Below, piece after piece: positions 1,265 to 44,638 of a stretch of 64,000 nucleotides of DNA (position 1 is its first letter; each line of letters begins with the position of its first letter). The translations under genes were made by a program, and so were the position numbers. The DNA is from Acidobacteriota bacterium (GTDB lineage Bacteria > Acidobacteriota > UBA6911 > RPQK01 > JAJDTT01): assembly GCA_965217775.1 (NCBI GenBank), contig CBDCJH010000002.1:5600001-5664000 (forward strand), read 5' to 3'. The notes beneath the pieces are model-generated. The model saw only the letters and a list, made by a program, of their open reading frames with translations, made no database searches and had not been told where the DNA came from.

Positions 1265-3181
1265 ATGCTCCACGTTCCAACAGTGATGGCTCTGGTCGGG
1301 ATCCTGCTACTGGCGCAGGCTGTCGGCGGCCGGGCCGGAGCTCAAGTCGAGCCGGAGCAGGCGCTACGGCGGGCGCTGGAACTCCAGCAGGCCGACGATG
1401 TGGACGGCGCCATCGAGCAGTACCGGGCCTTGCTGGCCCGATACCCGGACCATGCGGAGGCTCGCGTCAAGCTGGGCAACGCCTACTCTACGATCGGCCG
1501 CCATCAGGATGCCGTCACCCAATACGAGCAGGCTCTCGACCAAGGCGGCCTCAGGGATCCGACCGGTGTCAATTACGCCCTGGGGTGGGTCTATTTTCGA
1601 ATGGCCGAGTACGAAAGGGCCAAGCCGATCCTGGTCCGGGTCGTCGCCTCCGGCTCCAAGGGCAGGGAAGCCGTTCAACTGCTGGCATCCTGTTATTTCA
1701 ACTTGGGCGAATGGCGGAAGGTGATCGGCCTTCTGTCTCCGCATGAAGCGGAACTGTCCGAGTCGCCCGCTCTGACCTATCTGTTGGGCGTCGCGCTGGA
1801 AGAAGACGGTCAGATCGAGAGGGGAACGCCACTCGTAGAGACCGCCCTGAAAGAAACCGACTGGCCGACGGCACGGTTTCGGTCTGAGATGCGCTCGGAT
1901 TGGCTCAATCGACTGGCTCGTCGAGGAAGAAGCCTGATGGAGAGCGGGGACTACCCTGGGGCCGCCAGGCATTTGGAAAGAGCCCTCTCGCTCGATCCGA
2001 GGGTCCCCTCGTTGAACGTCACTTACGGGAAGTTGCTCCGGCTCATGAACCGGCACGCCGTTGCGGACCTGGCCTTCCTGCAAGAGCTTGAAATCAATCC
2101 CGACGATTACGATGCCAATTTGTTTCACGGCATCTATCTCTTCGAGAACGAACAGAAATATGAGGAGGCCCTGGCCTGCTTCGAACGGGCGTTGCGCACG
2201 CGGCCCGGCGCTGCCGATGCACGGTTTCAGATGGGACTCGTGTACAATTCCGCCAACCGGATTGAAGAGGCCATTCAAACCGTGAAGGGTGTGGTGGAGG
2301 AGAATTCCAATTTCCTGGAAGGCCATGTCACTCTCGCCGGCCTTTACTTTCGGTTGGGAAAAGAGGAGGAAGCCGAAAGCCACCGGGTCGCGGCCGAGCG
2401 GCTTCGAACCAGCAGGGACGGGCAGCACTTGATCAAGCTGGGGCAACTCTCGCAGGCCTCGGAGCTGTTCCAGCGCCAGAAGGAGGCGGACCCGTCGGAC
2501 CCCGAACCTTACTTCCATGAGGGCGTGGCCCTCTGGCAAGCGCAGGATTGGCAGGGTGCCGCCTCCGAATTCAAAGAGGCGGTGCGATTGGGCGACGGCG
2601 ATCTCAAATACACTCTCTACTATTCGAATGCGCTGGCCCAGTCGGGTCGGCATGAATTGGCGCGGACCATCGTGGAGTCCCTGCATCGGGATTGTTGGCG
2701 CCAACTGGACTCCCGTCAGGCCTGGATTCTGGGAGACACTTATTTTCAGATCGGAGAGCATGACCAGGTTCTGAAGGTCTTGGATTTCCTGGCTGGGAAG
2801 GACCCGAAGAATGCGCGGGTCGATCTGATGCGAGGCCAGATCCTTCTCCGTAAGGGAAACTACGAACGGGCACGGGCGTCCGCTGAAGGGAGCATCAGGA
2901 AACAGCCGGACAATGGCCTCGCCCACGCTCTGTTGGGAACAGCCCGGTATCTGCTCGGGGACCTGCCTGGGGCCAAGGAAGCCTTTCTCAAGGCCGTGGA
3001 ACAGGATCCCGGCAATCCGAATCATCTGCGCAAGCTGGGTGCGCTCTACCTGGAGTTGGGAGAGTATGAGCCGGCCATCGCGACTCTTGAGGGGGCCAGA
3101 CCAGCCGCTGCCAACATTCCCAGTATCCGCCGTCTTCTCGAAAGGGCGTACCAGGCAAGGGGAACCGGTTCCAAGGAATAA
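1265..3181 (+). CDS. Exported TPR-repeat protein
   Basis: Signal peptide ending in AGA-Q, followed by many TPR motifs (A..LG..Y...G.Y..A...Y..AL...P). Confidence 0.9.
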   Translation: MLHVPTVMALVGILLLAQAVGGRAGAQVEPEQALRRALELQQADDVDGAIEQYRALLARYPDHAEARVKLGNAYSTIGRHQDAVTQYEQALDQGGLRDPTGVNYALGWVYFRMAEYERAKPILVRVVASGSKGREAVQLLASCYFNLGEWRKVIGLLSPHEAELSESPALTYLLGVALEEDGQIERGTPLVETALKETDWPTARFRSEMRSDWLNRLARRGRSLMESGDYPGAARHLERALSLDPRVPSLNVTYGKLLRLMNRHAVADLAFLQELEINPDDYDANLFHGIYLFENEQKYEEALACFERALRTRPGAADARFQMGLVYNSANRIEEAIQTVKGVVEENSNFLEGHVTLAGLYFRLGKEEEAESHRVAAERLRTSRDGQHLIKLGQLSQASELFQRQKEADPSDPEPYFHEGVALWQAQDWQGAASEFKEAVRLGDGDLKYTLYYSNALAQSGRHELARTIVESLHRDCWRQLDSRQAWILGDTYFQIGEHDQVLKVLDFLAGKDPKNARVDLMRGQILLRKGNYERARASAEGSIRKQPDNGLAHALLGTARYLLGDLPGAKEAFLKAVEQDPGNPNHLRKLGALYLELGEYEPAIATLEGARPAAANIPSIRRLLERAYQARGTGSKE

Positions 3182-3202: not shown

Positions 3203-4921
3203 CTAATCTCGTTCCTCGACCCTGAGAATCTGGTCGGGGGCGACCTCTCTAAGTACCTGCAGCTTGCCCGAAGCCCAGCGGACCTCCAGCGACTCGATGT
3301 CCTCTTCCTTCCCCAGGCCGAAGTGAACCCGTCGGTCCGGTGAGGACATGAGACCCACCGTGGAGGAAACATGGTTCAGGAGGGTCCTGCCCGAGGCCGT
3401 CCGCAGTAAGACGGTGGCTCCGATCGCATCCCGATTGCTGGCCCGGCCGCGAAGGTCGACCATCAGCCAGTGGTTCCCGTTGTCTCCCGAATTTTGCAGA
3501 ATCCTCGGATTCTGGTTCAGAGAAGTGACGACGATATCCAGGAATCCGTCATCATTCAGATCTCCGAAAGAGGAACCGCGCTGGTAGGCAATACGCAGAA
3601 AATCCTGTCCCAGACTCTTCGAAACGTCGGCAAAGGTCGTTCCGTCCAGGTTTCGCAGCATGGTGTCATGCTGGGCGGTATCGGGGCTCAGATATTCCAG
3701 GCCCCCGTTGGCCGAATAGATGTCTTTCCAGCCGTCGTTGTCAAAATCGATGAATCCGCTGCCCCACCCCGTGAACTTGCGGCTCAGTTTGGCCACCTGA
3801 GTCCGGTAACTGACATATTCGAAGTACCGCCCTCCCTGGTTCTGAAAGAGCCCGTGGAGCTGATTTTTGAGGTCGTTGTAGAAAATGTCGACCTGTCCGT
3901 CATTGTTGAAGTCCTTGGCGTCGGCACCCATGCCCGAGCCGGCCACCGCAGAGCCCTTGTAGGCGACGCCTAGGAAAAACGATGCTTCCCGAAAGCTGCC
4001 GTTCCCCTGATTCAGATAGAGAAAATTCTGCACCGTGTCGTTGGCGACGAATACGTCCGGGCGGCCGTCCCGATTGAAATCGGCAATTCCCAGTCCCATG
4101 CCTTTGCCCAGCGCATTGGTGAGGCCCGCTTTCTGAGAGACATCGGCGAATCTGCCGCCGCCCAGGTTCCGGTAGAGCGTGTTGGAAACGCTGCGGACGG
4201 TTTTGGGACTGCAGTAGAACGGAGTTCCGTCGGGAAACGCACAAGGCTTGTCGGTCTTGGCATTCCAGTAGGTGTATTGGGAGACGAACAGGTCCAGCAG
4301 GGAATCCTGGTCGTAGTCGAACCAGGCGGCATCTACGCTCAGCAGATCGTCCGGTTTGTTGTCGAGGCCCGATCCGGCCGTCACCTCGGTGAAGGTGCCG
4401 TCTCCGTTGTTCCGATAAAGGGCGTTGGGTCCGGCATTGCCGATGAACAGGTCACGGTCGCCGTCGTTGTCGTAATCGCCGACGGTCACCCCGAAACAGT
4501 AGCCCAGACCGACTCCGGTCAGGCCGGCCTTCTGCGTGACGTTCTCGAATCTGCCGTTTCCCATGTTGCGCAAGAGGCAATTGTGAAACGAACGGTCCGT
4601 CTTCTCGACTTCCGGCAGCTTGGCGCCGTTGGTCAGAAAGATGTCCTGCCTGCCGTCGCCGTCGTAGTCGAAGATAGCCACGCCGCCGCACATGGGCTGG
4701 GGAAAGTACTTGCGGCCGGTGAAACTGTTATTGGACTGGTAGCGGATATTCGATCCGGGTGCGATGTCGGTGAACCGAATGGACCCTGCGTCGTTCCCGC
4801 GCGCGTTATTTTCGGATTGGGCACCAAGGACTCCCGTGACTGGGGTCGCCAAGACTGGAATGAGTACGTAACTCCACACCAGGGCCCATCCTGCGGGATG
4901 CATGTGCGTATGGTACGACAA
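3203..4921 (-). CDS. CRTAC1-family protein (FG-GAP/VCBS repeats + ASPIC/UnbV)
   Basis: Repeated DYDNDGDxD motifs and C-terminal NRDAIGA..RVHFGLG..VRWASG. Confidence 0.92.
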   Translation of the reverse strand: MSYHTHMHPAGWALVWSYVLIPVLATPVTGVLGAQSENNARGNDAGSIRFTDIAPGSNIRYQSNNSFTGRKYFPQPMCGGVAIFDYDGDGRQDIFLTNGAKLPEVEKTDRSFHNCLLRNMGNGRFENVTQKAGLTGVGLGYCFGVTVGDYDNDGDRDLFIGNAGPNALYRNNGDGTFTEVTAGSGLDNKPDDLLSVDAAWFDYDQDSLLDLFVSQYTYWNAKTDKPCAFPDGTPFYCSPKTVRSVSNTLYRNLGGGRFADVSQKAGLTNALGKGMGLGIADFNRDGRPDVFVANDTVQNFLYLNQGNGSFREASFFLGVAYKGSAVAGSGMGADAKDFNNDGQVDIFYNDLKNQLHGLFQNQGGRYFEYVSYRTQVAKLSRKFTGWGSGFIDFDNDGWKDIYSANGGLEYLSPDTAQHDTMLRNLDGTTFADVSKSLGQDFLRIAYQRGSSFGDLNDDGFLDIVVTSLNQNPRILQNSGDNGNHWLMVDLRGRASNRDAIGATVLLRTASGRTLLNHVSSTVGLMSSPDRRVHFGLGKEEDIESLEVRWASGKLQVLREVAPDQILRVEERD

Positions 4922-4957: not shown

Positions 4958-6574
4958 TTACGGCCGCTGCTGCCAGATCTGAACCAGCTCCCACTCCACC
5001 CCTTCCCGGGCCAGGCCGAAGTTTCCCAGGATGATATCGGTGTGGCCGTCCCCGTTGATGTCACCCAGTTCCAAGGTTATGTAGTCGCACGGAATTCCGG
5101 TCAAAGACCGGGGTTGGAAGGATCCGGGTTGGGTCTGTTCGTACCAGACCACTCCCGAAAGATTGGTCTGACGGCGCAGCTCCTCGGTCAGATTGGGAAG
5201 GTACGAGGACGCAACCAAGTCGAGATCGCCATCCCCGTCGAGGTCCCCCGCTTCGGCCCGGAGGGCGCCGTAGTAGACGTCCACCCGGTGGTGGACAAAG
5301 GAAAGCTGGCCCCTGTTCTCCAGCCAAGACAGCCCGTGATAGGGCCTCATCTGTGCGCTGTCGTCCAGGGTATCTCCGTGGGTGAAGATCACGTCCAGGT
5401 CCCCGTCTTGATCCAGATCGATGACCTCGATTCCGCTTGAACCCCAGTGAGGGTGAGGAGCCTTGAACAGGTTCTTCTTTTCAAACACTCCAGATCCCCG
5501 ATTGAGGAAAGCAACGACCGCTTCATGTTCCTGGGACAGCAGGGCGATGAAGTCGGGCCGGCTGTCCCGATCGATGTCCACGATGGGAATGTGGATCGCG
5601 CCGGCACGAGCGTCCAATTCCACGGGTCTGAAATCGTCGGCTCCGAGTTTCGAGGCGTTCTCCGGATGGGACTCGTTCTCCAGGTAGTGGATGCCGCCCA
5701 CTGTCCTCCAGCCGAACTCGGCGACGATGACATCCAGGTCCCGGTCGCCGTCAAAGTCCGCCGCCCGGACATCGGCGACCCTTCCGACCCCGGTGAGCAG
5801 CCGGTGAACCTCGAACTCGCGCCTCCCGGTGCGCCGGAGCCAGGACACGGATCCGGTTCGTTGGTCGGTCGGCTTGGGCCATCCGAGTTCGGCAACCAGC
5901 AAGTCGATCCTGCCGTCCCGGTCCAAATCAACGGCCTCGGCATGGCATGGATTGTTGAGTTGAGCAATGGGCTGGAGGTCCATTTGACCGTCGTCGGGAT
6001 CCGTCCAGCTCACCCATCCGGAGATCATGTCGCTGACCACCAGTTCGGGGCCCTTCCGGTCTGAAAACAGCTCCAGAAGGCGGACATTCGCTGCCCCGGG
6101 CTGGAGCCCGCGAACCGTCTTGCCCGGCAGGAGCCGGCGACTGAACTGAAGCTCCGGACCCCCGCGCTTCGCCGTCCAAGGCGGCGTCTCCAATTGGGCA
6201 GGCGCCTTCGACCGGAAGTAGGAAGCCACCTGTAAGGCGTCGATATCCCAGATCGGCTTGTTGTGGGATTGGAGGAGGGAGAGATTGGCCAGTCTGAATT
6301 TCCTCTGAATCAGGCCGGGCCATTCCTGCTTGGGGAGGATCTCCGGAGGAGTCCATTCGTGGCACTGGGTACAGGCCTTCCGGATCTTTGTTTCCAAGGC
6401 CTCCTCTTCCGTCAGCTGGAGGCTGGAGTGTGAGGAAAGTGAGGGGAGTCCGGGTGAGCGCCCGCCGGCGACGGATCGGCCGGGCAAAAACAAGAGGACA
6501 ATCAGACACAGAACCGGGAGGCAGCCAACGGACTGACCTCGTGTCTTCAGGTTCGAAATAGTAGCTGCTGACAT
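4958..6574 (-). CDS. FG-GAP/VCBS repeat protein with N-terminal c-type heme motif
   Basis: Signal peptide, CTQCH, then DLDRDGRID/DFDGDRDLD/DLDGDGDLD repeats; no ASPIC tail. Confidence 0.85.
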   Translation of the reverse strand: MSAATISNLKTRGQSVGCLPVLCLIVLLFLPGRSVAGGRSPGLPSLSSHSSLQLTEEEALETKIRKACTQCHEWTPPEILPKQEWPGLIQRKFRLANLSLLQSHNKPIWDIDALQVASYFRSKAPAQLETPPWTAKRGGPELQFSRRLLPGKTVRGLQPGAANVRLLELFSDRKGPELVVSDMISGWVSWTDPDDGQMDLQPIAQLNNPCHAEAVDLDRDGRIDLLVAELGWPKPTDQRTGSVSWLRRTGRREFEVHRLLTGVGRVADVRAADFDGDRDLDVIVAEFGWRTVGGIHYLENESHPENASKLGADDFRPVELDARAGAIHIPIVDIDRDSRPDFIALLSQEHEAVVAFLNRGSGVFEKKNLFKAPHPHWGSSGIEVIDLDQDGDLDVIFTHGDTLDDSAQMRPYHGLSWLENRGQLSFVHHRVDVYYGALRAEAGDLDGDGDLDLVASSYLPNLTEELRRQTNLSGVVWYEQTQPGSFQPRSLTGIPCDYITLELGDINGDGHTDIILGNFGLAREGVEWELVQIWQQRP

Positions 6575-6649
6575 CAGCCTGACTTCCACCGGGGCATCGT
6601 CTACACCATCGAACTTCGGTGCAGTGGCCGTTTTTCTTCCTGACCCGAA

Positions 6650-8839
6650 TCACCCGATGGTCAACACCCCTGCTCCGTAGGCCGGCAAGCGGACGCTGAG
6701 CGATACGGTGTCGCCGCGGCGGGCCAGTGACACCGGCTTGGGATCCTCGCCTTCCACGAAGAGCGACCCGGTGGTTCCGACCGATCTGCCGAGGGTCTCG
6801 GGAGAGAGCGAGACCTTCACCGTGCTCGGCCGGGGCCGGCCATTGGCCAGAGTCGCCGCAACACCGCCGGGCGACGTATAGACGTAGCCCTTGCCCCCCT
6901 CCACTTGCAGGCCGCGGTCGTCGCGAAACTGTCCATGACTCACAAAGGGCGCAGTGGCCTTGCGCAATCGCGCCAGACGGGCGACCTGCGCGGCGAGGTC
7001 CGGGTCGTCCGAGAGCAGCCCCGTCATGTCTTGAGTGGCGATGGCCATGTAGCTGCCCAGGCCAAAGGCGTCGGCGATGACGTCACGCTGGTTCTCGTCA
7101 ATGCACCAGCAGGGGACCATCGAGGGCAGGACGTACCGAAAGACATGCAGCAGGTCTTCCTCAGGCTTGCGCCAGCCCCAGATCCACCACAGGTCGATAT
7201 GCTGAGTGTTGTAGAGATCCGGAAGCTCGGCGAGGGTGTAGCTGCCGGGGTGTCGTTCCCGGGTCGTGCGAGTGAGTTCGGCATACCATTTGTAGGTGCG
7301 GTCCCACGCCTCCCACGGCGAGGCATGGCCGTGGTCGCGCGAAAGGCAGTAGTTCCACTCCGACGCCTGGTCGATGGAAATCATGTCGAAGCCGAGATCG
7401 AGGGTGCGCTCGAGGACCCGGCGCGCGAACGGAAGGAATCCATCCGCGCCGCAGCAGACGGCATGCGACCCCATTTCGTAGCCGGGATCGTTGTACCAGC
7501 CGCCGTCCAATGTTCCGCACGGAAAACCGAATATGGGGATGCCGAACAGACTCTGCTGGACCAGCGGCTTCAGCTCCTCCCAGGAGCTGTTGTATTCCAC
7601 CGCCAGGCGATAGTTCGTATAGGAGGTGAGGGAACAGCCGAGACGCCGCAACTCCTTCACGGCACGCCGCAGCGCGGCTTCCCGGTCAGCCGACATCTCC
7701 CAGAAGCTGCCGCGGTCCGGCCGGTAATACACCGACGCGGTGTGATCCCAGATCATGAGGTCGCTCACGCCGTACTTCATCGAATCTTTGGCGATGGCGG
7801 GAAGCTCGGAGAAATCGTGGTAACGCTCGCCCGAGGGCCCGTGGGTATGAATGTGGAACAGCCCGATCTTTTCCCGCAGCGCGGGGGGCGTGTCGCAGGG
7901 TTTCCACCATCCCGACAACCAGTCCCGGAGGCGGTCGGCCGTGGCATGCCAGTCGCCCTGGTGGACCCCCACCCCAAACTCGCAACTGGTCCAGGTCTCC
8001 CCCGGCTCGACAAACACGCCTGTGGCCCAGGTCCAGGTCAGGGAGATCTCCCGGGTGACGTAAAGAGCGTTCTCGAATACGAGGATGTGCGGCGAGGGGC
8101 GCTGCTCGTACTTGATGAAGGAGAGGCCGCCGCCGTCGTAGCTCAAATCCATCATCGGCAACTGATGGATCGGAACTTCGCCCAGCCGCAGGTGATGGTG
8201 TCCGAACGAATGGGTGCTGGTCCCCATCTCGGCGATTGTGGCGTAGATGTCGGGGTACAGTTTCTTGCTGGTGGTGATCAGATCGCGGGACTGACCAGGC
8301 TTGGCCAGGCGTCCGCCGATCCAGGGGAACCACATTTCGTGGACGCGAAAGGGACTCTCGTTGCGGATCTCGGCCGTGAAGAGGGCCTCCGAACTGCCTT
8401 CGGGCAGGCGCACCCGTACGGTCAGGAACACGCCGTACTTCCGGCCGCGAAACTGTAGCTCCGGAAAGTCGATCTCGAGCTGATCGCCGTTTCGGTTCAG
8501 GGACGGCCTTCCCGCCTGGTGCGACCTCAACGGCACCGAGTTGTGTTCGGGCGTCGGCACTACCAGCTTCGCCAGCCGGTGTCCGCGCGGGTCGTTCAGA
8601 TATTGCCGGCCCGTCTTGCGGTCGGTGATCTGGAGCAGGCTCCCAGTCCCCTCGTCGAACTCGAAACTCACCAGTCCGTTGTCCAGTAGCGTGACGGGCG
8701 GATTCACCTGCACGCCGGCGCCGCGCTCCGGCGTCCTCGGTCCCGGCGCAACTCCTGCAGCGGCACGACCCTCCACCAACCCGTAGGCTCCGGTCCCACC
8801 GGCGATCTTCATCAGTTCTCTGCGGTTGATCCTGGACAT
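6650..8839 (-). CDS. Tat-exported putative glycoside hydrolase (DUF6259-like)
   Basis: NRRELMK twin-arginine signal, beta-sandwich N-terminus, HQGDWH motif, and TIM-barrel-like region with FDMISIDQ..C...HGH. Confidence 0.7.
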   Translation of the reverse strand: MSRINRRELMKIAGGTGAYGLVEGRAAAGVAPGPRTPERGAGVQVNPPVTLLDNGLVSFEFDEGTGSLLQITDRKTGRQYLNDPRGHRLAKLVVPTPEHNSVPLRSHQAGRPSLNRNGDQLEIDFPELQFRGRKYGVFLTVRVRLPEGSSEALFTAEIRNESPFRVHEMWFPWIGGRLAKPGQSRDLITTSKKLYPDIYATIAEMGTSTHSFGHHHLRLGEVPIHQLPMMDLSYDGGGLSFIKYEQRPSPHILVFENALYVTREISLTWTWATGVFVEPGETWTSCEFGVGVHQGDWHATADRLRDWLSGWWKPCDTPPALREKIGLFHIHTHGPSGERYHDFSELPAIAKDSMKYGVSDLMIWDHTASVYYRPDRGSFWEMSADREAALRRAVKELRRLGCSLTSYTNYRLAVEYNSSWEELKPLVQQSLFGIPIFGFPCGTLDGGWYNDPGYEMGSHAVCCGADGFLPFARRVLERTLDLGFDMISIDQASEWNYCLSRDHGHASPWEAWDRTYKWYAELTRTTRERHPGSYTLAELPDLYNTQHIDLWWIWGWRKPEEDLLHVFRYVLPSMVPCWCIDENQRDVIADAFGLGSYMAIATQDMTGLLSDDPDLAAQVARLARLRKATAPFVSHGQFRDDRGLQVEGGKGYVYTSPGGVAATLANGRPRPSTVKVSLSPETLGRSVGTTGSLFVEGEDPKPVSLARRGDTVSLSVRLPAYGAGVLTIG

Positions 8840-9098: not shown

Positions 9099-12000
9099 AT
9101 GCCCAGGAAACGTCGGGGCGCCCGCAACCGGCAGAGGAAGAGAAGACGAGTTCAAACGACCTCTGCGAAAAGGCGTCCGAGCGTCCGCAAGACCCGCCCA
9201 CAATCCGCACCGGAGAAACGGTCACCGGAACGAAGGCCCAAGAGTCTCTACCTGGGAATGTCAGTCCTGGGCGCGGTTGTGGCAATCGGGGCACTCTATT
9301 TCTTCAAGGATCGAGGTGAGCCCTTTCCCGGCAGGGTCTGGTCACAGGAGTACACGATCCCTCCCAGGAATCTGCCGCTGGGCGACGTGGAGAAGGCCTT
9401 GAAGAAAGTTCCGGAAGGGGCTGACGAATGGGATTCCGAAGAGGTGGACGTCGAGATCGAGAACAGGCTCCAGGAATTCGCCAGTGTGCTCAAGGGCGAA
9501 TCGGGTGCCGAATCGTTTCTGCCCGGGTTTCTCGGTTCCGACTTCAAAGGGACGCCGCTGGAGCCGTCAGCCACCCGGAAGGTCAAGGCTGAGGAGGGGT
9601 TGGAGATCTTCCGAGGCGAGCCGGACAGCGAGGAAAGAGTCACGGCGGCGGCGTTTCCGTCAGAGATCGCAAAGTTATTGCGTGAAGCCGCACGGATAGA
9701 AGACGTGAAATTCAAGGTGACGAGGATCGAATCGCCCCGGCTTCCGGGATCGACCGTCGTCAGCGACGTCAAATACACCATTCTGGGTCTGGACAAGGCC
9801 GGCGAATCCTTGCAGTGGATGGGAGACTGGCAACTCGACTGGCAAAAGGACCACTTGGGCCAATGGAAGCTCTCACGGCTGAAAGCTCTGTCCACTTCGC
9901 AAGGACGGAGTGTCCGCAACGCCTTCATGGAGGTCACTCAGCGGGCGCTGGGGAAGAACGACTCCTACCGGCAACAGCTTCTGCTGGGAGTCGAGTATTG
10001 GCAGGGAATCCTCGACTACGTCGCCGGAATGGACATCTATGGTCACAACGGCGTCTCGATTGCCGATATCGACGACGACGGCGACGAGGATTTCCATGTC
10101 TCTCAGCCGGCGGGCCTACCCAATCTGCTGTTTCGCAACCAGGGAGACGGAACCTTTCTGGACGTCACCGAAAAGGCGGGAGTCGACGTCCTGGACAATA
10201 CGGCGTCCAGTTTTTTTGCCGACACGGACAACGACGGGGATCCGGACCTCATCCTCATTGGCGCCAGCTCACTGCTTTTTCACAACGACGGCTCCGGCCG
10301 CTTCCGGCTGGCTCCCGATTCCGGGTTCGAGGCGATCGATGACACCGGCGGGAGCAAAGTGTCCGCTGCCGTGGCCGACTACGACCTGGACGGACATCTG
10401 GACATTTATGTCTGCTCATACGCCTTTTGGCAGGGACAGGAAGAACTGGGCAATTATCCCTTTCCCTACCACGACGCCAACAACGGCGCCCCCAACATCC
10501 TCTTGCGGAACCAGGGGAACGGGTCGTTCCGCGACGTCACCCGGCGATCCGGAATAGATCAGAATAATCTGCGTTACAGTTTTGCCGCGGCGTGGGGGGA
10601 TTACAACGGCGACCGATATCCGGACCTGTACGTCGCCAACGACTTCGGCCGCAACAACCTCTATCGAAACAACGGTGACGGCACCTTTACCGACGTGGCC
10701 CGAGAGGCGGGAGTGGAAGATATCGGAGCGGGAATGAGCGCGGCTTGGGAGGACTATGACAACGACGGCCGCCTGGACCTCTACGTGGGAAACATGTGGT
10801 CGTCGGCGGGTCAGCGGATCACTTCACTGCAGCAGTTCCAGACCCAGCGGCCGCAAGAGGAGATCCGGAGCTATCGACGCCATGCCAAGGGCAACTCCCT
10901 GTTCGCAAATCGGGGTGACGGAACGTTCGAGGAAGTCGGCGCCCAAGCGGACGTCGAGTTGGGCCGGTGGGCCTGGAGCAGCGATTTCTTCGATTTCGAC
11001 AATGACGGTCATGAAGACCTGTACGTGGTGAACGGCTTCATCACCAACGAAGACACGAAGGACCTCTGAAGCTTCCTCTGGCGGCAGGTCGTGTCGCAAT
11101 CGCCATCGCAGGATGCCGTCGCTTCCGCCCCGTCCGGAGCGCGGATCGGCTCCGAATACCGGAATGGGTGGGACGCGGTGAACTTGCTGATCCGGCAAGG
11201 CGGATCCCTGAGTGCGCGCGAGACCAACAATTTCTATATCAACTGCGGCGACGGAACCTTTGCCGACGCCTCGGGCATCACGGGACTGGACTTTCCCGAA
11301 GACGGACGTGCCTTCGCCACCGGCGATCTCGACCAGGACGGCGACCTGGATCTCATTCTAAAGAATCGAAATTCGCCGCAGCTCCGGCTGTTGCGGAATC
11401 AGGGCGGGAGCGGCTACAACGCGGCCAGTTTCGATCTCAGGGGCACGCGCAGCAACCGGGACGCCGTCGGAGCGAGAATCACCATCGAGACCGACGCGGG
11501 CTCCAGGTCGAAATTCGTCAAGATCGGATCGGGTTTCCTGTCCCAGAGTTCTCGCCGGGTCTGGTTCGGACTGGGGAACCAAGAAGGGATCCGGCAAGTC
11601 AAGATCGATTGGCCCAGCGGGGAAGTCCAGACTCTTCGTGATCTACCGGCCAACCACCGGATCGTGATCGTCGAGGGGGTGGGCAGAACGGAGACCATTC
11701 CTTTTCGGTCTTCCCAGCAGGAGGACGCCAGGGCGGGCGACGCGAGGGAAGCGCCTGCTGGTGATCCTCCGCTATACAGTGGAACCTGGCTGCTGGAGAA
11801 ACTTGCCGCCCCCAAGTTCCGGTTGCCCAGCGTGAATGGAAGGCATTATGGCTTGGGCATGTACCAGGGCCGCCGGGTGTTGTTGAATTTCTGGGCGACC
11901 TGGTGCCCGCCGTGCCGGGAAGAGTTGCGCGACCTGCGATCCCATCGGGAGGATCTGAAAGACCTCGGCGCCACGATTCTGGCGATCTCCGTCGATGATC

Positions 12001-13181
12001 CTTCAGACCGCGCGAAGGTACGAGAGTACGCCCGGCAGGAAGAGCTCCCGTTCCCGATCCTGCTTGCCGACGAGGACGTCATCGCTGCGTACAACCTGGT
12101 CAATCGCTTCCTGTTTGAAAAAATACGCGACTTGGCCGTACCCACCTCCATGCTTCTGGACCGGGACGGGAACATCGTCAAAATCTACCGGGGCAGAGTT
12201 CCCGCCCGGCAGATCATCCGGGACATTCAGAATATCCCTCGATCCGAAGAAGAGCTGGTCCGGGCGGCCTTTCCTTTTCCGGGTCAAACCTTCGGCATGG
12301 AATTCGTCCGGGACTACACGGTGATTGCGGACGCATTCCGAAGGGCCGGACTCAACGACCAGGCGGCGGATTACTACCAGCACCAGCTACTGGAGCAGGG
12401 CCACGACACGCCCCAATCGTGGAACAGCCTCGGGCTCCTCCATGAACGTGAGGGTAAGTTGGTCCAGGCTCGTGAGGCCTACGAGAAGGCCCTCCGTCTG
12501 AATCCCGACTACGCGGACAGCCACAACAATCTCGGCGCGATTCACTTGAAAGCGGGGGAAATCGACAAGGCCGTAGACAGCTACCGAACTGCCGGCCGCC
12601 TGGCTCCCTGGTCAGCCGACGTCCAGAACAACCTCGGCCATGCGCTGGTGGAGAAGGGTCTGTTCGGGGAGGCCATCCGGGCGTACCGGCGGGCCCATGA
12701 GATCGACGGTCAGGCTCCTCAGCCGCTGATCAACCTTGGAAACACTTACCTTAAAATGAAGCGTTTTCAAGACGCGATCTCAGCATACGGCAAGGTCTTG
12801 CAGATTTTTCCGGATTCCGCGGATATCCATCACAACCTGGGTTTCGCGTATCTGGAGTCAGGGCGACTCGACGACGCTTTGGCGTCGTTCGACAGTGCGC
12901 TTCGGCTTCGGCCTCAATACGCAAGCGCCCATAACAACAAGGGGACGGTCTTTTTGCGAAAGGGCAGGTTTGAAGAGGCGGGACGTGCGTTCAAGGGGGC
13001 GATCCAGGTCGAATCCGGGTTCAGGGCCGCCTACATCAACCTTGCCATGACGCACCTTCGAGCAAACGAAATTGAAAAAGCCGTGGACGTGCTCCGCCGC
13101 CTGCTCAAGGTGAATCCGGACGATCCCATGGCGCTGGACCTATTGGCACAGATCGAGCAAGTGAAGTCCTCGGCACCGTAG
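9099..13181 (+). CDS. Putative selenoprotein (U657), 1360 aa: TM anchor + FG-GAP propeller + ASPIC/UnbV + TlpA-like redoxin (WCPPC) + TPRs
   Basis: ORFs 9099-11069 and 11091-13181 share a frame with a single TGA at 11067 (EDTKDL*SFLWRQVVSQSP). The last FG-GAP repeat and the ASPIC domain lie downstream of the TGA, and a SECIS-like hairpin follows it. Confidence 0.78.
11081..11097 (+). promoter_or_regulatory. Bacterial SECIS-like hairpin
   Basis: GCGGCA-GGUCG-UGUCGC, 17 nt long, starting after an 11-nt spacer from the UGA; possible lower stem 11071-11077/11110-11116. Confidence 0.7.
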
Positions 13182-15030: not shown

Positions 15031-15774
15031 CTATCCGTCGATGACACCTTTCTCTTGCAATCTGCCAACCGCATTCTCCATAGACCTATCGCCCTTCACC
15101 TTATTGCACGCCGAACAGAGTAGTTGGAGATTAGAGATCTTGTCGATACGCTTCTTTTTCTTAGGTAGGATGTGGTCTTTTTCCAGATTCCTCAGCGGGA
15201 AATCATGAGCGCACAAGACGCACTTTCCATTCTGTTGTTCGTAGAGGTACTTGGCGATTTTCTCGTCGCCCATCCAAGGATGCCATTGAGCCATCTTGCC
15301 GCTTGGCGCGTGCAGGTAGATTCTCCCCCTGATATGCGACTCCGTGTGGACGTAGAAGTACCCATCACTCGTCGACCTGGCCCATCCGCCCGACTCGACG
15401 AAGGCATCCTCTTCTACGAGTCCCCTCTTCGTGGCGATATTCGCGGCGCGCAGGAATCTTTTCCGATACCGCCCAACATCATCGGACTTCGCTATTGCCT
15501 TGCCCAATCGCGTATCGGGTAGGCTGTGTCTTGGCGGGTCTGGCTTGTCGGGACTCAATGACGAAGTCTTCAGCCATCGGGCGACTCGGTTCCCGTCAAG
15601 GTGGTGATAGTAGTATTTGGTCACTCGAGCCCATCCTGCGATTTCCTCAAAGACTTCCACCTGCTGACCTCGATATAGTCGGTTGACTACCTCGGCATCC
15701 TCGGAAGGAGCAAGATGTTCGCTCGCAACTTCGTCCCTGACGAATGCCGCGGGAGCTTGGTGCTGTCTGTTCAT
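15031..15774 (-). CDS. HNH endonuclease with N-terminal SH3b-like region
   Basis: C-terminal CVLC..DHILPK..NLQLLCSACNKVKG; N-terminal APSEDAEVVNRLYRGQQVEVFEEIAGWARV; lower GC than neighbours. Confidence 0.8.
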   Translation of the reverse strand: MNRQHQAPAAFVRDEVASEHLAPSEDAEVVNRLYRGQQVEVFEEIAGWARVTKYYYHHLDGNRVARWLKTSSLSPDKPDPPRHSLPDTRLGKAIAKSDDVGRYRKRFLRAANIATKRGLVEEDAFVESGGWARSTSDGYFYVHTESHIRGRIYLHAPSGKMAQWHPWMGDEKIAKYLYEQQNGKCVLCAHDFPLRNLEKDHILPKKKKRIDKISNLQLLCSACNKVKGDRSMENAVGRLQEKGVIDG

Positions 15775-15845
15775 TCCTTTTTTCCTTGCGCTCAGATGTT
15801 GATGCCGGTGCCTATGAACACGTCCGCTTGCGTCCTCGCTCCGGC

Positions 15846-15869
15846 CGGCGGTTAGGAAACCGCCGCTCC
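15846..15869 (-). repeat. GGAG-tagged REP hairpin
   Basis: Reverse strand reads GGAG CGGCGGT TTCCTA ACCGCCG. Confidence 0.8.
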
Positions 15870-17384
15870 TCACCGTGGCTCACGCCGGAGGACGACCGGA
15901 CGGAGTCCGGGAATCTCATCCTGCGCCGGGAAATAGGGGCCCTTGAGCTCTGTGTACCGAACGTGGCGCAAAATCGCCGGGGTTGGGCCCGGCGTATCCA
16001 GCACCAGTGCCTCCGTGAACTTCCTCTCATAGCCGACACGGTAGTTCATGGGATTCTTGACTACGATGAACTTGGCGTTTCGAGTGTCCATGCCCACGGA
16101 CCGGTATTGCTCGTCGGCCCAATCGTAGGTGGGAAAGGTGCAGATCAGCACTTCGACCGAGCCGATCCGGAGCCGCACCGAGGGACCCATGTCGGCGACT
16201 TGGCCTCCCCAAATGCCGCCCGAGTAGACGAACTTCCCATCAGTCAGCTTCTCGATCCGCCCGGTCACGGACATGGACCGGCCCCAGCGCGGATCCACCC
16301 TGTGACCCAGAGTCAGTCGGATCTCGGAACCCTCCGTCTCCTGATGGCATTTGGCTGCGGCTTCCGGATCCACCACGGGAACCAGGGCAGGAACGGAAAT
16401 GAAGTTCTCCAAGAGCGCGCGCAAGGTAGCCACGCTGTCCCCGGCGGCGCCACCCCCGACGGAATCCGCGGTCTCCAGCAGCAGGACGGGGCCACCCTCC
16501 ATCTCCAGTCCACGGACGATCGCCTCCCGCGGACTCCAGACTTGGGGTTCCAGGTCGAACCTTCGCTCCCAGTACATCTCGGCGACCTGCGTCGACAACT
16601 CGACGGCAGCGGTGATGTCGCCGTCGGTGATGACCAGGCCGCCGCCCCCCATGCCGGGATGATCGAGATACGGCTGGACCAGGAAGCTGCTCGTCGACAG
16701 CACGTCGGGCCGCTGCTCCATGGCCTTGGCGAAGCGCATCACGTCGGCAAAGGGCGCCGAACCTTCGGTAGAACCCATGATCCCACCCACGATGACCGGC
16801 ACCTTGGCCATGGCCATGGCCGGCCGAACCTTCCCGTCGAGGATGTCGAGCAGCATCCTAACGCCGCGGACTCCTGTGGTGTACGTGTCGCGGTGGGGAT
16901 AGGTCTCCCAGGCCACCAACGCGTCGGTGCATTCGACCATCCTCTCGCTGACGTGGGCGTGCAGATCGAGCGTCCCGACGATGGGGATCTCGGCTCCCAC
17001 CTCGTTACGCACGGCTTCCACCAGATCCCCTTCAAGGTCGCCGATCTCTTCGACCGCCGCGCCTCCGTGCAAGGGGAGCAGCACTCCGCCCACCGGCTTG
17101 GAATCCCGTAACCTTTGTAGAAGCTCCGTCTTCAGCGTGAGGTAGCAGTCCCGGCTCAGGATGCCCCCCGGGACGGCGGTGGCCACCAGCAGCGGCACAA
17201 TGTCCGCGCCACGTTCCCTCAAAGCGGACAGCATTCCCCCGACGACACCGTCCGTCGATTCCAGGACCTGTTGCCCCCGGCGCAGCTCCGTTCGTTCGAA
17301 GCAGGCCAGATCGGTGAACGTGCCGACCAGGTGATTGGACTCCGTAAAGATGGTGCCGACGGCGATTCGATACGGTTGGCTCAT
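15870..17384 (-). CDS. MlrC-family (M81) metallopeptidase
   Basis: FTESN, LPLHGG, DLEGD, TLDLHAH, TYPHRD motifs. Confidence 0.9.
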   Translation of the reverse strand: MSQPYRIAVGTIFTESNHLVGTFTDLACFERTELRRGQQVLESTDGVVGGMLSALRERGADIVPLLVATAVPGGILSRDCYLTLKTELLQRLRDSKPVGGVLLPLHGGAAVEEIGDLEGDLVEAVRNEVGAEIPIVGTLDLHAHVSERMVECTDALVAWETYPHRDTYTTGVRGVRMLLDILDGKVRPAMAMAKVPVIVGGIMGSTEGSAPFADVMRFAKAMEQRPDVLSTSSFLVQPYLDHPGMGGGGLVITDGDITAAVELSTQVAEMYWERRFDLEPQVWSPREAIVRGLEMEGGPVLLLETADSVGGGAAGDSVATLRALLENFISVPALVPVVDPEAAAKCHQETEGSEIRLTLGHRVDPRWGRSMSVTGRIEKLTDGKFVYSGGIWGGQVADMGPSVRLRIGSVEVLICTFPTYDWADEQYRSVGMDTRNAKFIVVKNPMNYRVGYERKFTEALVLDTPGPTPAILRHVRYTELKGPYFPAQDEIPGLRPVVLRREPR

Positions 17385-17426
17385 CCTTCGAGGTTCGCTC
17401 CGGCAGTTGCGAGGATTGGACATCTG

Positions 17427-17495
17427 GGAGCGAGGGTTGTCCAACCCCCGGAACAAGTAAACCAGAAGCACCGGGCGACTGGAAAGTCCCCCTCC
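17427..17495. repeat. Inverted dimer of GGAG REPs (REPIN-like)
   Basis: GGAG CGAGGGT TGTCCA ACCCCCG (+) and GGAG GGGGAC TTTCCA GTCGCC (-). Confidence 0.7.
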
Positions 17496-17533
17496 TGCGA
17501 GTACGTGAAAACGTGACTGTCCCCTTCTCAGGA

Positions 17534-17806
17534 TTATTTCTTGAAGAGATCCGAGTGTGTCCCGGTGCGGACCAAGTGCAATTCGTCGCCCTCTACACGG
17601 TAAATCACGAGCCAGTCCGGTTCGAGATGCGCCTCGCGGTACCCTTTCCAAATTCCCCGTAACGGATGGTCGCGATGCCGCGCGGACAGCGGCTCCTGCA
17701 CGATCAATGAGGACAGGAACGACCGCAGCTTCGTCAGATCCTTGCCTCGCACCCTGGCTTTTCGCACATCGCGTTTGAACTGCGATGAGCGTACCGGGGT
17801 CAACAT
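17534..17806 (-). CDS. yafQ: YafQ-family mRNA interferase toxin
   Basis: SQFKRDVRK..RDHPLRGIWKGYREAHLEPDWLVIY..LVRTGTHSDLF. Confidence 0.93.
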   Translation of the reverse strand: MLTPVRSSQFKRDVRKARVRGKDLTKLRSFLSSLIVQEPLSARHRDHPLRGIWKGYREAHLEPDWLVIYRVEGDELHLVRTGTHSDLFKK

Positions 17807-18303: not shown

Positions 18304-19083
18304 GTGACCGTTGTTGTGATCATCTCAGCCAATATTGAATGGAACGCCGTCAGGAGAATTCTTTCCGAAGCTGCCCCCCAAGCATCTCCTTATGGAGAAT
18401 GGTTTGAGACCCAGCTTGACACTGAAGATGCCCGGCAGTCCGTCATACTTTTTCACGGTGGACGGGGCAAGATTTCGGCGGCAGCATCAGCGCAATACGC
18501 GATCGATCGATGGTCTCCGGATCTGGTGGTGAATCTGGGCCCTTGTGGTGGATTTGAGGGAGAGGTCGAAAAGGATGCCGTCGTGCTGGTTGAGCGGACG
18601 GTGGTATATGACATTATCGAGCAGATGGTGGATGCTGAGGAAGCAATCCGAGATTATGCAACGGAGATCGATCTTTCGTGGTTGAGTGAGCCCTATCCCC
18701 ATCCTGTGTTGAGAACCGTTCTGGTATCGGCAGACCGGGATCTCAGGCCGGAAGATATTTCAGACTTGAAGTCCAAATACGGTGCAGTGGCAGGAGATTG
18801 GGAATCGGGTGCAATCGCCTGGGTGGCCAACCGAAACCAGGTCCGATGCCTCATTTTGCGTGGGGTTACGGATCTGGTGGGTGATGGAGGCGGCGAAGCT
18901 TATGCGGGCAGGGTGCAGATCTATGTAGAAAATACGGAGCGGATCATGAACGATCTGGTTCTGAACCTTCCCCAGTGGATAGTATATATGGACGCCAAAA
19001 AATCCGGACCAGTGTACGAAGTTGATAACCGGGTGGTGAGTAGACTGTCGATGACCCAACGATCGAAATGGGATTCCTGTTGA
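18304..19083 (+). CDS. MTA/SAH nucleosidase-like (PNP_UDP_1 family)
   Basis: GRGKISAAAS, VNLGPCGG, GDWESGAIA, LRGVTD motifs; AAGGAG RBS before GTG. Confidence 0.82.
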   Translation: MTVVVIISANIEWNAVRRILSEAAPQASPYGEWFETQLDTEDARQSVILFHGGRGKISAAASAQYAIDRWSPDLVVNLGPCGGFEGEVEKDAVVLVERTVVYDIIEQMVDAEEAIRDYATEIDLSWLSEPYPHPVLRTVLVSADRDLRPEDISDLKSKYGAVAGDWESGAIAWVANRNQVRCLILRGVTDLVGDGGGEAYAGRVQIYVENTERIMNDLVLNLPQWIVYMDAKKSGPVYEVDNRVVSRLSMTQRSKWDSC

Positions 19084-19100
19084 AGGCCGAGCGAGGTTCC

Positions 19101-20738
19101 ATGTCTCTTCCGGGCCGGCGGCTGGTCTGTGCAGGGTTTTTTCTGCTCGGCCTCATTTATTGCGCACACTCGAGCCGCGAGGCCTCGCTTTCAGTTCGCA
19201 TCCTCGATGCCGGCACCGGTCAACCTACGCCGGTGCGGGTCTTGCTGACGGACTCGGACGGCAACACTCCTCGGGTCACGGGGGCCTTGGCGGTCTCGGA
19301 ATCTGCGCTCCCCATCCCGGACGCCGCCATTCCGGTCATGTACGGGCGCTACGATCGCGCGGAAGGGTATCTGCTCCAGCCCGACGGCTCCTTCTATGTC
19401 GATGGGTCCTTCGAGGCACAACTGCCCCCGGGGCCGTATTCGCTCAAGCTGTCCAAGGGATATGAGTTCGTTGCGCAAACCGTGAAGCTCGATCTCAACC
19501 CGGGCGAGAGCCTTTCCCGAGAGTACAAGCTGGAACGATGGATCGACATGCCCCGGCGTGGCTGGTACTCGGGGGACGATCACATTCACCTGCGGCGGTC
19601 GCCGCGCGACGATCCGGCCATTCTTCGCTGGACGGCGGCAGAGGATGTGCACGTGGCGCATCTTCTCCAAATGGGGGATTTCTGGGCGACTTATTACTCT
19701 CAATATGCTTGGGGCGGCAGGGGCCGTTACCGCGAAGGGGACTACATCCTCTCGCCCGGTCAGGAAGGCCCCCGGACGCCCGAGATCGGTCACACTATTT
19801 CGCTCGGTGCGGAAGAGTTCGTGCGATTTCGGGACGACTACTACAATTACGGCCGTGTTTTCGACCAGGTGCACGAGCTGGGAGGCATTACCGGCTTCGC
19901 CCATCAAGCGATGACCTTTCACGGTTATCGTGGAATGACACTCAACGTGTTGCGAGGGAAGCTTGATTTTCTCGAGGTGATGCAGTTCTGTCCACGGGAA
20001 GGGCCGCTGGCGCTGAAGCACTATTATCATTTCCTGGATCTTGGATATCAGCTTACGGCGTTAGGTGGCTCAGACTTTCCCTGGTGTGGGCGAGGACCTC
20101 GCTTCGGCCTGGAAGAGGGGTGTTCCCAGATCGGCGACGCCCGGTTCTACACCTATACCGGCGACAGCCTCTCGTTTGACCGCTGGCTGCAGGGCGTCAA
20201 GGCCGGCCGCACCTTCGTTACCAGCGGACCGATGCTGGAGTTTACGGTGAACGACCGGCTTCCCGGAGCGACGCTGGATGTCGAATCGGGCACTGTAATC
20301 AGGATCTCAGCCAAAGCCTACGGGAAGGCGTCTCAGATCCCCTTACGCCAACTGGAAATCGTAGGGCATTCCAAAACGCTGAAGAAAGTCTCTGCGGGGG
20401 AGCCGGGACAGAGTGAAGAGTTGCTCTCTATAGAGATGGAGTTGCCGGTGACACGTGGGATCTGGGTCGCCGCCCGGACCGATGCCGCCCACACCCAAGT
20501 CGCCCATACGACGCCAGTCTACGTCAGAGTGAACGGAGCGAGCTTCCACAACCCGGCAACGGCTGATCACAACCTCGAGCTTTGTCGCAGCTACCTGAAG
20601 GAGTTGGAAGAGGATCTGGCCCATCCGGGGGAAAGAAACGACAATCAGGCTGTCCGACACAAACAGAACCTGGAACGGCAGATCGTTGAAACCAGAGCCG
20701 CGCTAAAGCACTTGGCATCGCGTCTGGGCCGGGAATGA
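19101..20738 (+). CDS. CehA/McbA-family PHP-like metallohydrolase
   Basis: GWYSGDDHIH, GFAH, GGSDFP, GRTFVTSGP, AHTTPVYV motifs. Confidence 0.85.
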   Translation: MSLPGRRLVCAGFFLLGLIYCAHSSREASLSVRILDAGTGQPTPVRVLLTDSDGNTPRVTGALAVSESALPIPDAAIPVMYGRYDRAEGYLLQPDGSFYVDGSFEAQLPPGPYSLKLSKGYEFVAQTVKLDLNPGESLSREYKLERWIDMPRRGWYSGDDHIHLRRSPRDDPAILRWTAAEDVHVAHLLQMGDFWATYYSQYAWGGRGRYREGDYILSPGQEGPRTPEIGHTISLGAEEFVRFRDDYYNYGRVFDQVHELGGITGFAHQAMTFHGYRGMTLNVLRGKLDFLEVMQFCPREGPLALKHYYHFLDLGYQLTALGGSDFPWCGRGPRFGLEEGCSQIGDARFYTYTGDSLSFDRWLQGVKAGRTFVTSGPMLEFTVNDRLPGATLDVESGTVIRISAKAYGKASQIPLRQLEIVGHSKTLKKVSAGEPGQSEELLSIEMELPVTRGIWVAARTDAAHTQVAHTTPVYVRVNGASFHNPATADHNLELCRSYLKELEEDLAHPGERNDNQAVRHKQNLERQIVETRAALKHLASRLGRE

Positions 20739-31489: not shown

Positions 31490-33414
<1,925 letters not shown>

Positions 33415-44556: not shown

Positions 44557-44637
44557 GTAGGGGCACCTCTTGTGGGTGCCCTCTTACGTCATCACGCGTG
44601 CAAATAAGGAAGGGCAACCACAAGGGTTTGCCCCTAC
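44557..44637. repeat. Inverted dimer of GTAG-type REPs between convergent genes
   Basis: GTAG GGGCACC TCTTGTG GGTGCCC (+) and GTAG GGGCAA ACCCTTGTGG TTGCCC (-). Confidence 0.8.
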
Positions 44638-44638
44638 G

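Follow-up and report, generated by a model that had tools for sequence, protein, structure and literature searches.

The window analyzed here is a 64,000-nt stretch of DNA from an Acidobacteriota bacterium (assembly GCA_965217775.1, contig CBDCJH010000002.1, called C2 below). At positions 9099-13181 on its forward strand lies a putative selenoprotein gene, in which an in-frame UGA codon would be read as selenocysteine (Sec) with the help of a downstream selenocysteine insertion sequence (SECIS). Frame 1 of this region is open throughout except for a single TGA at 11067-11069, which occurs in the context ITNEDTKDL-U-SFLWRQVVSQSP, where U marks Sec. Under translation table 11, the region is divided into two open reading frames (ORFs), one of 656 aa at 9099..11069 and one of 696 aa at 11091..13181 that starts with GTG. 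An earlier reading of this DNA, which we refer to as the first-pass annotation, had claimed that these ORFs share a frame interrupted by TGA 11067-11069 alone, and our translation confirmed this. The joined frame contains the following features.

9099-13181, forward strand: putative joined selenoprotein gene of 1360 residues, a single open frame with one TGA (ATG at 9099, Sec codon at 11067, stop codon TAG at 13179-13181)

9099-9245, forward strand: N-terminal tail rich in Arg and Lys, residues 1-49, from the translation; probably cytoplasmic

9246-9305, forward strand: hydrophobic segment LYLGMSVLGAVVAIGALYFF, residues 50-69, from the translation; predicted signal anchor that would place the remainder of the protein outside the cytoplasm

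10053-11393, forward strand: FG-GAP beta-propeller, residues ~319-765, with the Sec-bearing helical insert within it (Pfam FG-GAP_3, 3.6e-46, six stretches)

11067-11069, forward strand: UGA, putatively read as selenocysteine 657 (column conservation)

11067-11195, forward strand: three-helix insert, residues 657-699, with Sec as its first residue and the conserved motif D-L-U-S-F-F/L-W-R-Q-V-V (AlphaFold model and alignments)

11081-11097, forward strand: candidate SECIS hairpin, with stem 11081-11086 / 11092-11097 and apical loop GGUCG at 11087-11091 (bacterial SECIS constraints and covariation)

11463-11663, forward strand: UnbV_ASPIC domain, residues 789-855 (Pfam, 3.3e-18)

11805-12203, forward strand: ResA/TlpA-like thioredoxin-fold domain, residues 903-1035 (Pfam AhpC-TSA 3.6e-24, Redoxin 1.9e-20)

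11904-11915, forward strand: active-site motif C936-P-P-C939, 279 residues past Sec (translation)

12396-13154, forward strand: tetratricopeptide (TPR) repeats, residues ~1100-1352 (Pfam TPR_1 1.3e-49 and related models)

The joined product would contain only four Cys residues, at positions 439, 716, 936 and 939. Its basic tail and the hydrophobic segment at residues 50-69 suggest a protein held by a single membrane anchor, with its bulk outside the cytoplasm. Pfam places both the UnbV_ASPIC domain and the final FG-GAP repeat 3' of the TGA, in keeping with the earlier claim that termination at this codon would detach them.

The TGA is conserved at this position in relatives of the gene. In a first sample of 41 related genomes searched in six frames, 29 had a match, and nearly all of the best matches contained exactly one TGA (34-93% identity). 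Orthologues from 8 genomes of the same genus, which were 84-93% identical to the window gene, contained the same single TGA, and at the order level it occupied the same column in 27 of 30 loci (33-99% identity). A phylum sample of 401 genomes gave matches in 172, and in 61 of these genomes at least one match held one TGA (among the matches listed). After 60 more pieces were fetched, the set comprised 111 unique sites, with TGA at 76, Cys codons at 2, other sense codons at 33, and TAA or TAG at none. We also scanned one genome per species of bacteria and archaea with a degenerate DNA pattern for U-S-x-F-W-R-[QH]-V-V and recovered at least 117 stretches. Among the matches listed, all 117 of 117 loci were homologues with TGA at the site, never TAA or TAG, and by record taxonomy they came from Planctomycetota, Acidobacteriota, Verrucomicrobiota, Latescibacterota, Bacteroidota and Eiseniibacteriota. 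The earlier expectation that TGA would be conserved at DL-x-SF[FL]WRQ in Sec-using genomes was borne out in these three sets. One genome, G016 (loci L020 and L052; one of the 61 genomes), is unpublished; it is included in the 30-locus, 61-genome and 111-site tallies, in that of the nearest non-TGA orthologues and in alignments A1 and A3, and no claim depends on it.

A pseudogene or an assembly error at the TGA is one possible explanation for an interrupted frame, and the presence of the stop codon, but nothing more, speaks for it. This TGA, the only stop in 1360 codons, recurs in the 8 genomes of the same genus and across many families and phyla, and a pseudogene would not show such conservation. 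In addition, contigs of two other sequencing runs span the TGA without any listed difference at 11067-11069, with pieces of 908 nt (X1, 10635-11542) and 150 nt (X5, 10959-11108); both are contigs, and either may be from the source sample of the window assembly. Contigs of four runs were compared in all, and the uncovered parts and many short joints in that comparison come from paralogous repeats. As the TGA also occurs in independent assemblies, it is not peculiar to one assembly, and we consider the probability of a pseudogene or assembly error to be negligible. A contig from an RNA library (X16, a metatranscriptome labeled 'sponge metagenome'; 172 nt, 11049-11220) matched the window with 0 differences across a stretch that takes in the TGA, hairpin and helical insert; it has only 18 letters 5' of the TGA, was not counted as bridging, and could reflect DNA carry-over.

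Alternatively, the UGA could be a true stop, so that the locus would encode a 656-aa propeller fragment and a 696-aa protein that restarts at GTG 11091. Table-11 ORFs do lie on both sides of the codon, databases list such halves, and the GTG is conserved 8 codons downstream of the TGA. The conservation of this GTG is explained, however, by its place in the codons for a conserved Val-Val, and the codon has no ribosome-binding site upstream: it sits within the hairpin, as the first-pass annotation had stated along with its poor ribosome-binding site, and no AGGAGG-like site was found in the preceding 25 nt. The seven codons between the TGA and GTG 11091 encode SF[FL]WRQV, the most conserved motif of the family, and show synonymous variation, a pattern of protein-level constraint that speaks against termination. 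Non-TGA orthologues carry the same peptide unbroken within single chains of ~1250-1320 aa, and tblastn high-scoring segment pairs (HSPs) extend across the stop. A gene split in two should show TAA and TAG at this position as well, and the exclusive presence of TGA at the 76 sites and 117 loci argues against a split. A stop would also break the propeller. The AlphaFold (AF2) model of residues 301-1050, based on an alignment of 52 sequences, is confident and runs through the TGA position without a break (mean predicted local distance difference test score 88.7, predicted template modeling score 0.88), and its strands form blades. We therefore regard a true stop as extremely unlikely.

The genome of the window contains a second gene of the same family at C2:1465714-1468591, which is ~35% identical to the first and encodes a propeller, an UnbV domain and a redoxin domain (WCGPC) without TPRs. 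Its TGA, at C2:1467496, lies at the same place in KDT-U-SFFWRHVV and is followed by its own hairpin, GGCGCCAC-GUC-GUGGCGUC. This TPR-less type outnumbers the other in the phylum sample. Individual loci showed further peculiarities: the G005 orthologue (L018/L044) gave separate matches to residues 1-1159 and 1192-1359, a break that points to a frameshift or indel in its TPR part; a TAG was reported in addition to the TGA in the G010 match (L019); and in L168, from a Pirellulaceae contig, a Cys immediately precedes Sec (G-D-C-U-S-F-F-W-R).

Among bacterial stop codons, UGA is the leakiest, a property that counts in favor of read-through in which Sec-tRNA(Sec) is replaced by a Trp, Cys or Arg tRNA acting as a near-cognate or suppressor. 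The tRNA complement of the genome opposes this explanation, since the single tRNA with anticodon UCA that ARAGORN identified is a tRNA-Sec. SelA (443 bits), SelB (wing domains) and SelD (298.5 bits) were also present, and all of these, like the tRNA-Sec, are encoded on the window's own 6.29-Mb contig C2, so that selA, selB, selC and selD, the genes called for by the first-pass annotation's reading, were all found. TGA terminates 2498 of 3921 long open frames and is the commonest stop in the genome; as it serves as the ordinary main stop, no change of the genetic code is indicated. Across the phylum sample, SelA (E <= 1e-40) was detected in 301 of 401 genomes. Among the 61 listed genomes with a TGA form, SelA was present in 57, and the other four (G009, G341, G117 and G279), which lack a SelA-grade match, contain tRNA-Sec (68-76 bits), so that SelA or tRNA-Sec accompanies the TGA form in all 61. 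By comparison, five genomes with a non-TGA close orthologue (G134, G198, G235, G245 and G331) had no SelA match.

The RNA downstream of the TGA provides a second line of evidence. After an 11-nt spacer, we found the 17-nt stem-loop GCGGCA-GGUCG-UGUCGC that had been claimed earlier, at 11081-11097. Four constraints on consensus bacterial SECIS (bSECIS) elements are set out in the text of a May 2026 review: a stem of 4-16 bp capped by an apical loop of 3-9 nt, a G among the first two nucleotides of the loop, a UGA-to-loop distance of 16-37 nt and a minimum free energy (MFE) of <= -7.5 kcal/mol (PMC13188914; spacing also in the text of PMC10778597). The window hairpin lies within all four: its 6-bp stem carries the 5-nt loop GGUCG, the loop is separated from the UGA by 17 nt, and the MFE is -8.7 kcal/mol.

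Comparison across homologues links this hairpin to the TGA. In 71 unique TGA sequences, 82.6% of cells paired, versus 75.7 ± 1.0% in shuffles (0/500), and the covariation score was 0.206 versus 0.106 in shuffles (0/500); controls in which the hairpin was slid along the same set gave 24-68% pairing. One stem pair occurs as five types (CG 32, GU 14, GC 6, UA 5, AU 2), and all six pairs form in 45 of the 71 sequences versus 2.7 expected from synonymous resampling with the set's own codon usage (0/2000 resamplings reached the observed value). Kinship inflates such counts, and genes that encode the same peptide motif without a TGA therefore serve as a control: for 25 of these Sec-less relatives, pairing was 58.0% versus 57.6% in shuffles (238/500), and only 1 of 25 was fully paired. 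The mean folding energy of 33 nt was likewise lower in TGA forms than in the others (-12.05 versus -9.33 kcal/mol; Mann-Whitney p = 1e-4). In 114 further unique sequences from the pattern scan (among the matches listed), the stem was fully paired in 100 and the loop was GGUCG in 88, with a pattern that had left five of the six 3' stem partners unfixed. Within these matches, the third base of the Arg codon changes in step with the codon four positions further on, with CGG/CGA accompanying UCG (Ser), CGC accompanying GCG (Ala), CGU accompanying ACG (Thr) and CGG accompanying CCG (Pro). The hairpin is thus conserved among TGA-bearing homologues, a point on which the earlier reading had hinged, and it covaries in TGA forms only. 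With a hairpin at SECIS distance, a G-rich apical loop and compensatory changes confined to genes with the TGA, we consider read-through by a near-cognate or suppressor tRNA very unlikely.

Several results weigh against the reading of this UGA as Sec. The window hairpin is not significantly more stable than synonymous recodings of the same sequence (-8.7 versus -8.1 ± 2.5 kcal/mol; 40% were as low), and for this reason its significance rests only on the comparison across homologues. RNAalifold returned no consensus structure for all 71 TGA sequences (alignment A1), and an Rfam scan of 10900-11300 gave no match at E <= 10. The high base rate of SelA in the phylum sample (75%) means that its co-occurrence with TGA discriminates weakly. 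Finally, homologues with Cys in place of Sec are rare, which is unusual for a selenoprotein (2 of 111 sites; 0 of 91 database orthologues, described below). Taking these points together with the conservation of the TGA, the hairpin and the Sec machinery, we hold with high confidence that Sec is inserted at UGA 11067-11069. It is also very probable, judging from sequence comparison, that 9099-13181 is one gene whose hairpin acts as a SECIS for SelB and whose product is a 1360-residue anchored protein that combines propeller, redoxin and TPR domains.

We next describe the residues that occupy the Sec position in Sec-less relatives. The nearest non-TGA orthologues (45-57% identical) keep DL-x-SFFWRQVV unchanged apart from x, which is A, G, S, N, E, D or Y. 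Among 91 database orthologues with the motif, N was present in 43, S in 21, A in 20, G in 4 and E in 3, and Cys in none. The only Cys residues at the Sec column were those of two distant homologues (L127 and L128; DY-C-T.FWRH, encoded by TGC/TGT). The first-pass annotation had expected Cys or Ser in Sec-less relatives, and this was not what we observed, as these relatives mostly carry N, S, A, G, E, D or Y and not Cys or Ser alone. Cys was also seen opposite Sec in distant paralogues (10 of 30 HSPs), and these cases were not counted as Sec/Cys pairs because in each alignment the Cys lies at or close to the end and may be an artifact of a query in which C stood for U. A quick tree of the 111 pieces (FastTree, midpoint-rooted, long branches flagged) required at least 7 state changes, 5 of which are forced by well-supported branches. 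As non-Sec rows are nested among Sec rows, Sec was replaced several times.

The structural model places Sec in a distinct element of the propeller. The insert helices span model residues 357-363, 371-376 and 385-399, with Sec657 as the first residue of the helix at 357-363, and the CxxC motif lies at the start of the helix at 637-648. The first-pass annotation had placed Sec657 in a loop; our data support its reading of UGA as Sec, but AlphaFold puts this residue first in a short helix of the three-helix insert. The top Foldseek match in the Protein Data Bank was murine CRTAC1 (9etn_A; E 3.4e-29, target-normalized template modeling (TM) score 0.70, 20% identity), and an hmmsearch of the family profile against structures returned 9etn only (6.9e-36). 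The three-helix insert has no aligned counterpart in CRTAC1 in the HMMER alignment. For the redoxin domain, Foldseek matched ResA (2f9s_A, TM 0.89) as well as TlpA entries. NCBIfam models matched the whole protein only in its TPR and redoxin parts, all below cutoff, and the below-cutoff matches of the redoxin part were to ResA, StoA and TlpA.

The presence of Sec is associated with that of the CxxC motif. Of 129 unique Sec-form frames that extend 320 residues or more beyond Sec, 123 have a CxxC 230-320 residues past it (all sets, among the matches listed), and in the first sets all 29 Sec-form loci that reach the redoxin domain carry W-C-x-x-C. Sec-less orthologues mostly have A/S-x-x-C or no Cys in the redoxin motif, and CxxC is kept in ~5 of the 105 database proteins whose redoxin domain was aligned. 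Pfam finds no redoxin domain in three divergent groups of Sec forms, and exactly these have a Cys at Sec+2, in the motifs G-U-S-C-V-W-R, G-U-R-C-V-W-Q and G-U-T-C-L-W-R. These U-x-C forms are L037 (G028), L134 (G414) and L135 (G128), with relatives L103, L104 and L110-L114, and several copies occur in each of G414 and G406. No separate redoxin gene was found beside the U-x-C forms in the short flanks examined, and no second Sec (UxxC) was seen in the redoxin motif. In the tree set, 35 rows have both Sec and CxxC, 3 have Sec without CxxC (the U-x-C forms), 24 have neither and 3 have CxxC without Sec.

These counts also contain evidence against a redox coupling of Sec and CxxC. The 6 of 129 Sec forms without CxxC comprise three from Verrucomicrobiota and three from Planctomycetota, two of them without any downstream Cys, and 3 of the 27 non-Sec rows in the tree set keep CxxC. 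Moreover, there are only 5 independent pairs, which change in the same direction in ~3.3 cases and never in the opposite one (sign-test p ~0.25), and a test of this size has no power. Two planctomycetotal loci, L152 and L172 (U-S-[AS]-F-W-R-H-V-V), have no Cys downstream of Sec and are exceptions to the Sec-CxxC pairing. In an alternative explanation, Sec is inserted but is not a redox center recycled by CxxC; it may instead serve as a metal or metalloid ligand, or its UGA may mainly tie full-length synthesis to selenium supply. The replacement of lost Sec by the unrelated residues N, S, A, G, E, D and Y within a conserved motif, as for a dispensable add-on, points this way, as do the absence of CxxC from 6 of 129 Sec forms and the lack of a significant association over independent pairs. 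On the other side stand the retention of CxxC in 123 of 129 Sec forms, the U-x-C motif of redoxin-less forms and the position of Sec at a helix N-terminus in the AF2 model. A further argument against a non-redox role is that most catalogued selenoproteins are thought to be redox proteins, according to the review text (PMC13188914). We assign the non-redox explanation an appreciable but minor probability.

On balance, we lean toward the redox interpretation, in which Sec657 would be a redox-active center outside the cytoplasm that is reduced by the fused CxxC domain, with the Cys of U-x-C as a local substitute and loss of Sec amounting to loss of the chemistry. In this mechanism, SelB carrying Sec-tRNA(Sec) would use the 17-nt hairpin 11 nt past the UGA, and the ribosome would read the UGA as Sec. 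Sec657, at the N-terminus of a helix, would then act as a redox-active nucleophile. Its oxidized form (a selenenic acid, or a selenenylsulfide with the substrate) would be reduced by C936/C939 of the fused domain, which may itself be re-reduced via the usual membrane electron route for TlpA/ResA proteins. In relatives without a redoxin domain, the Cys two residues past Sec could do the same job locally. Lineages that lost Sec would have lost the chemistry with it, and the site would have drifted to N, S, A, G, E, D or Y while the redoxin domain dropped its first Cys.

Database annotation of this family is shaped by the UGA. No database protein of 748-2380 aa was more than 57% identical to the joined protein, even though same-genus orthologues reach 84-93%. 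A search with the N-terminal half recovered database proteins of 649-657 aa with 85-96% identity that contain FG-GAP domains only, and 56 of 112 newly returned database relatives end exactly at ...DL. The first-pass annotation had anticipated that standard annotation would split the gene, and databases do carry such truncated halves. Where the cut relatives are named, the names are 'VCBS repeat-containing protein', 'FG-GAP repeat domain-containing protein' and 'hypothetical protein'. Because gene callers cut at the UGA, domain architectures and selenoproteome counts are wrong for several major phyla. NCBIfam (June 2026) contained no significant model for residues 301-880.

The family also appears to be new to catalogues of selenoproteins. 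Table 1 of the May 2026 review lists 119 prokaryotic selenoprotein families, none with FG-GAP, UnbV_ASPIC, CRTAC1 or TPR (PMC13188914), which, as far as that table goes, agrees with the earlier remark that CRTAC1/ASPIC-UnbV is not a described selenoprotein family. The terms FG-GAP, ASPIC, UnbV, CRTAC1 and VCBS are unmentioned in the texts of PMC13188914, PMC12013277 and PMC13326102, a statement that covers the texts, so that an earlier listing elsewhere is possible. Within the text portions consulted, TPR and repeat are unmentioned in PMC13188914 and PMC13326102, as are FG-GAP, ASPIC and repeat in PMC9312934. A search of full-text literature linking selenoproteins or selenocysteine to FG-GAP, ASPIC, UnbV, CRTAC1 or VCBS found nothing relevant. 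By its sequences, this is a new selenoprotein family of a known kind (bacterial, with an in-frame SECIS) that is widespread in at least six named phyla, where its genes are consistently annotated wrongly in truncated form.

Other CRTAC1-like genes cluster around the selenoprotein gene in the window, at the following positions.

3212-4684 (approximate; gene 3203-4921), reverse strand: CRTAC1-like paralogue, cluster member

4958-6589, reverse strand: CRTAC1-like/FG-GAP gene of the cluster around the selenoprotein gene

31793-33391: CRTAC1-like paralogue, cluster member

33685-35139: CRTAC1-like paralogue, cluster member

43239-44543: CRTAC1-like paralogue, cluster member

44561-46120, reverse strand: CRTAC1-like paralogue, cluster member

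The five ordinary, single-chain CRTAC1-like paralogues that the first-pass annotation had claimed for the window were all located, one of them with Pfam confirmation, and the genome as a whole has ~45 places with CRTAC1-like paralogues. Other ORFs in the window encode an all-TPR protein of 638 aa (1265-3181) and two proteins with no Pfam match at 1e-5, one of 729 aa at 6650-8839 on the reverse strand, directly upstream of the selenoprotein gene and opposite to it, and one of 556 aa at 19068-20738 on the forward strand. An HNH endonuclease ORF at 15031-15873 (reverse strand) overlaps the end of an M81 peptidase/MlrC-type gene at 15870-17651 (reverse strand). The neighboring genes (the TPR protein, two FG-GAP proteins, the 729-aa ORF and a GFO/IDH/MocA oxidoreductase) give no hint of a substrate.

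CRTAC1/ASPIC-UnbV proteins of bacteria abound in soil and marine phyla, and to our knowledge they have no established biochemical function. A conserved Sec together with a thiol-disulfide domain points to extracytoplasmic redox chemistry and would be a first chemical clue for this family. In a targeted look at the genome of the window, as opposed to an exhaustive scan, we found no in-frame TGA in FdhA-like, SelD or CMD/AhpD homologues and no match to Rdx/SelW, which raises the question of what maintains the Sec trait. We offer one broader proposal tentatively and consider it somewhat doubtful: CRTAC1-like propellers may include a large unrecognized class of extracytoplasmic selenoenzymes, with Sec in a helical insert and recycled by a TlpA-like domain or a U-x-C Cys. 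As Cys would be no stand-in, lineages would either keep Sec or lose the activity, and such enzymes might be a main reason that Sec machinery is kept where a Sec-containing formate dehydrogenase is absent (Acidobacteriota, Planctomycetota and Verrucomicrobiota).

Compared with known systems, the protein has two uncommon features: its Sec lies outside a thioredoxin fold yet is linked to the CxxC of a fused domain, and relatives with Cys in its place are very few. The characterized bacterial SECIS cases are the E. coli fdh genes. Like the bSECIS consensus, the window element is a stem-loop within the coding region just past the UGA, with a loop starting GG-U; it differs in being short and in having no bulged U, and is a candidate SelB site. 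The protein resembles CRTAC1/ASPIC-UnbV proteins in its FG-GAP repeats followed by UnbV_ASPIC and in its CRTAC1-like fold, but adds the Sec-bearing insert, a predicted membrane anchor, the redoxin domain and TPRs. Extracytoplasmic thiol-disulfide oxidoreductases of the ResA/TlpA/DsbE type, whose clients include apocytochrome c and ScoI, share with it a redoxin domain of thioredoxin fold that has W-C-x-x-C at a helix start. In our protein, however, this domain is fused behind a propeller, and its proposed client would be the Sec of the same chain. The redoxin domain also weakly matches a Sec-containing TlpA/redoxin family, NF041054 WAxxUGC_long (50 bits versus a cutoff of 300). In those families, Sec replaces a Cys of the thioredoxin motif, whereas here the CxxC is ordinary, and Sec belongs to a different fold, 279 residues upstream of it. 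Neisseria PilB is a fusion of a Trx-like domain with MsrA and MsrB, and offers an analogy, with no claim of membership: in both proteins a catalytic chalcogen would be regenerated by an extracytoplasmic TlpA-like domain of the same chain, although the catalytic folds are unrelated.

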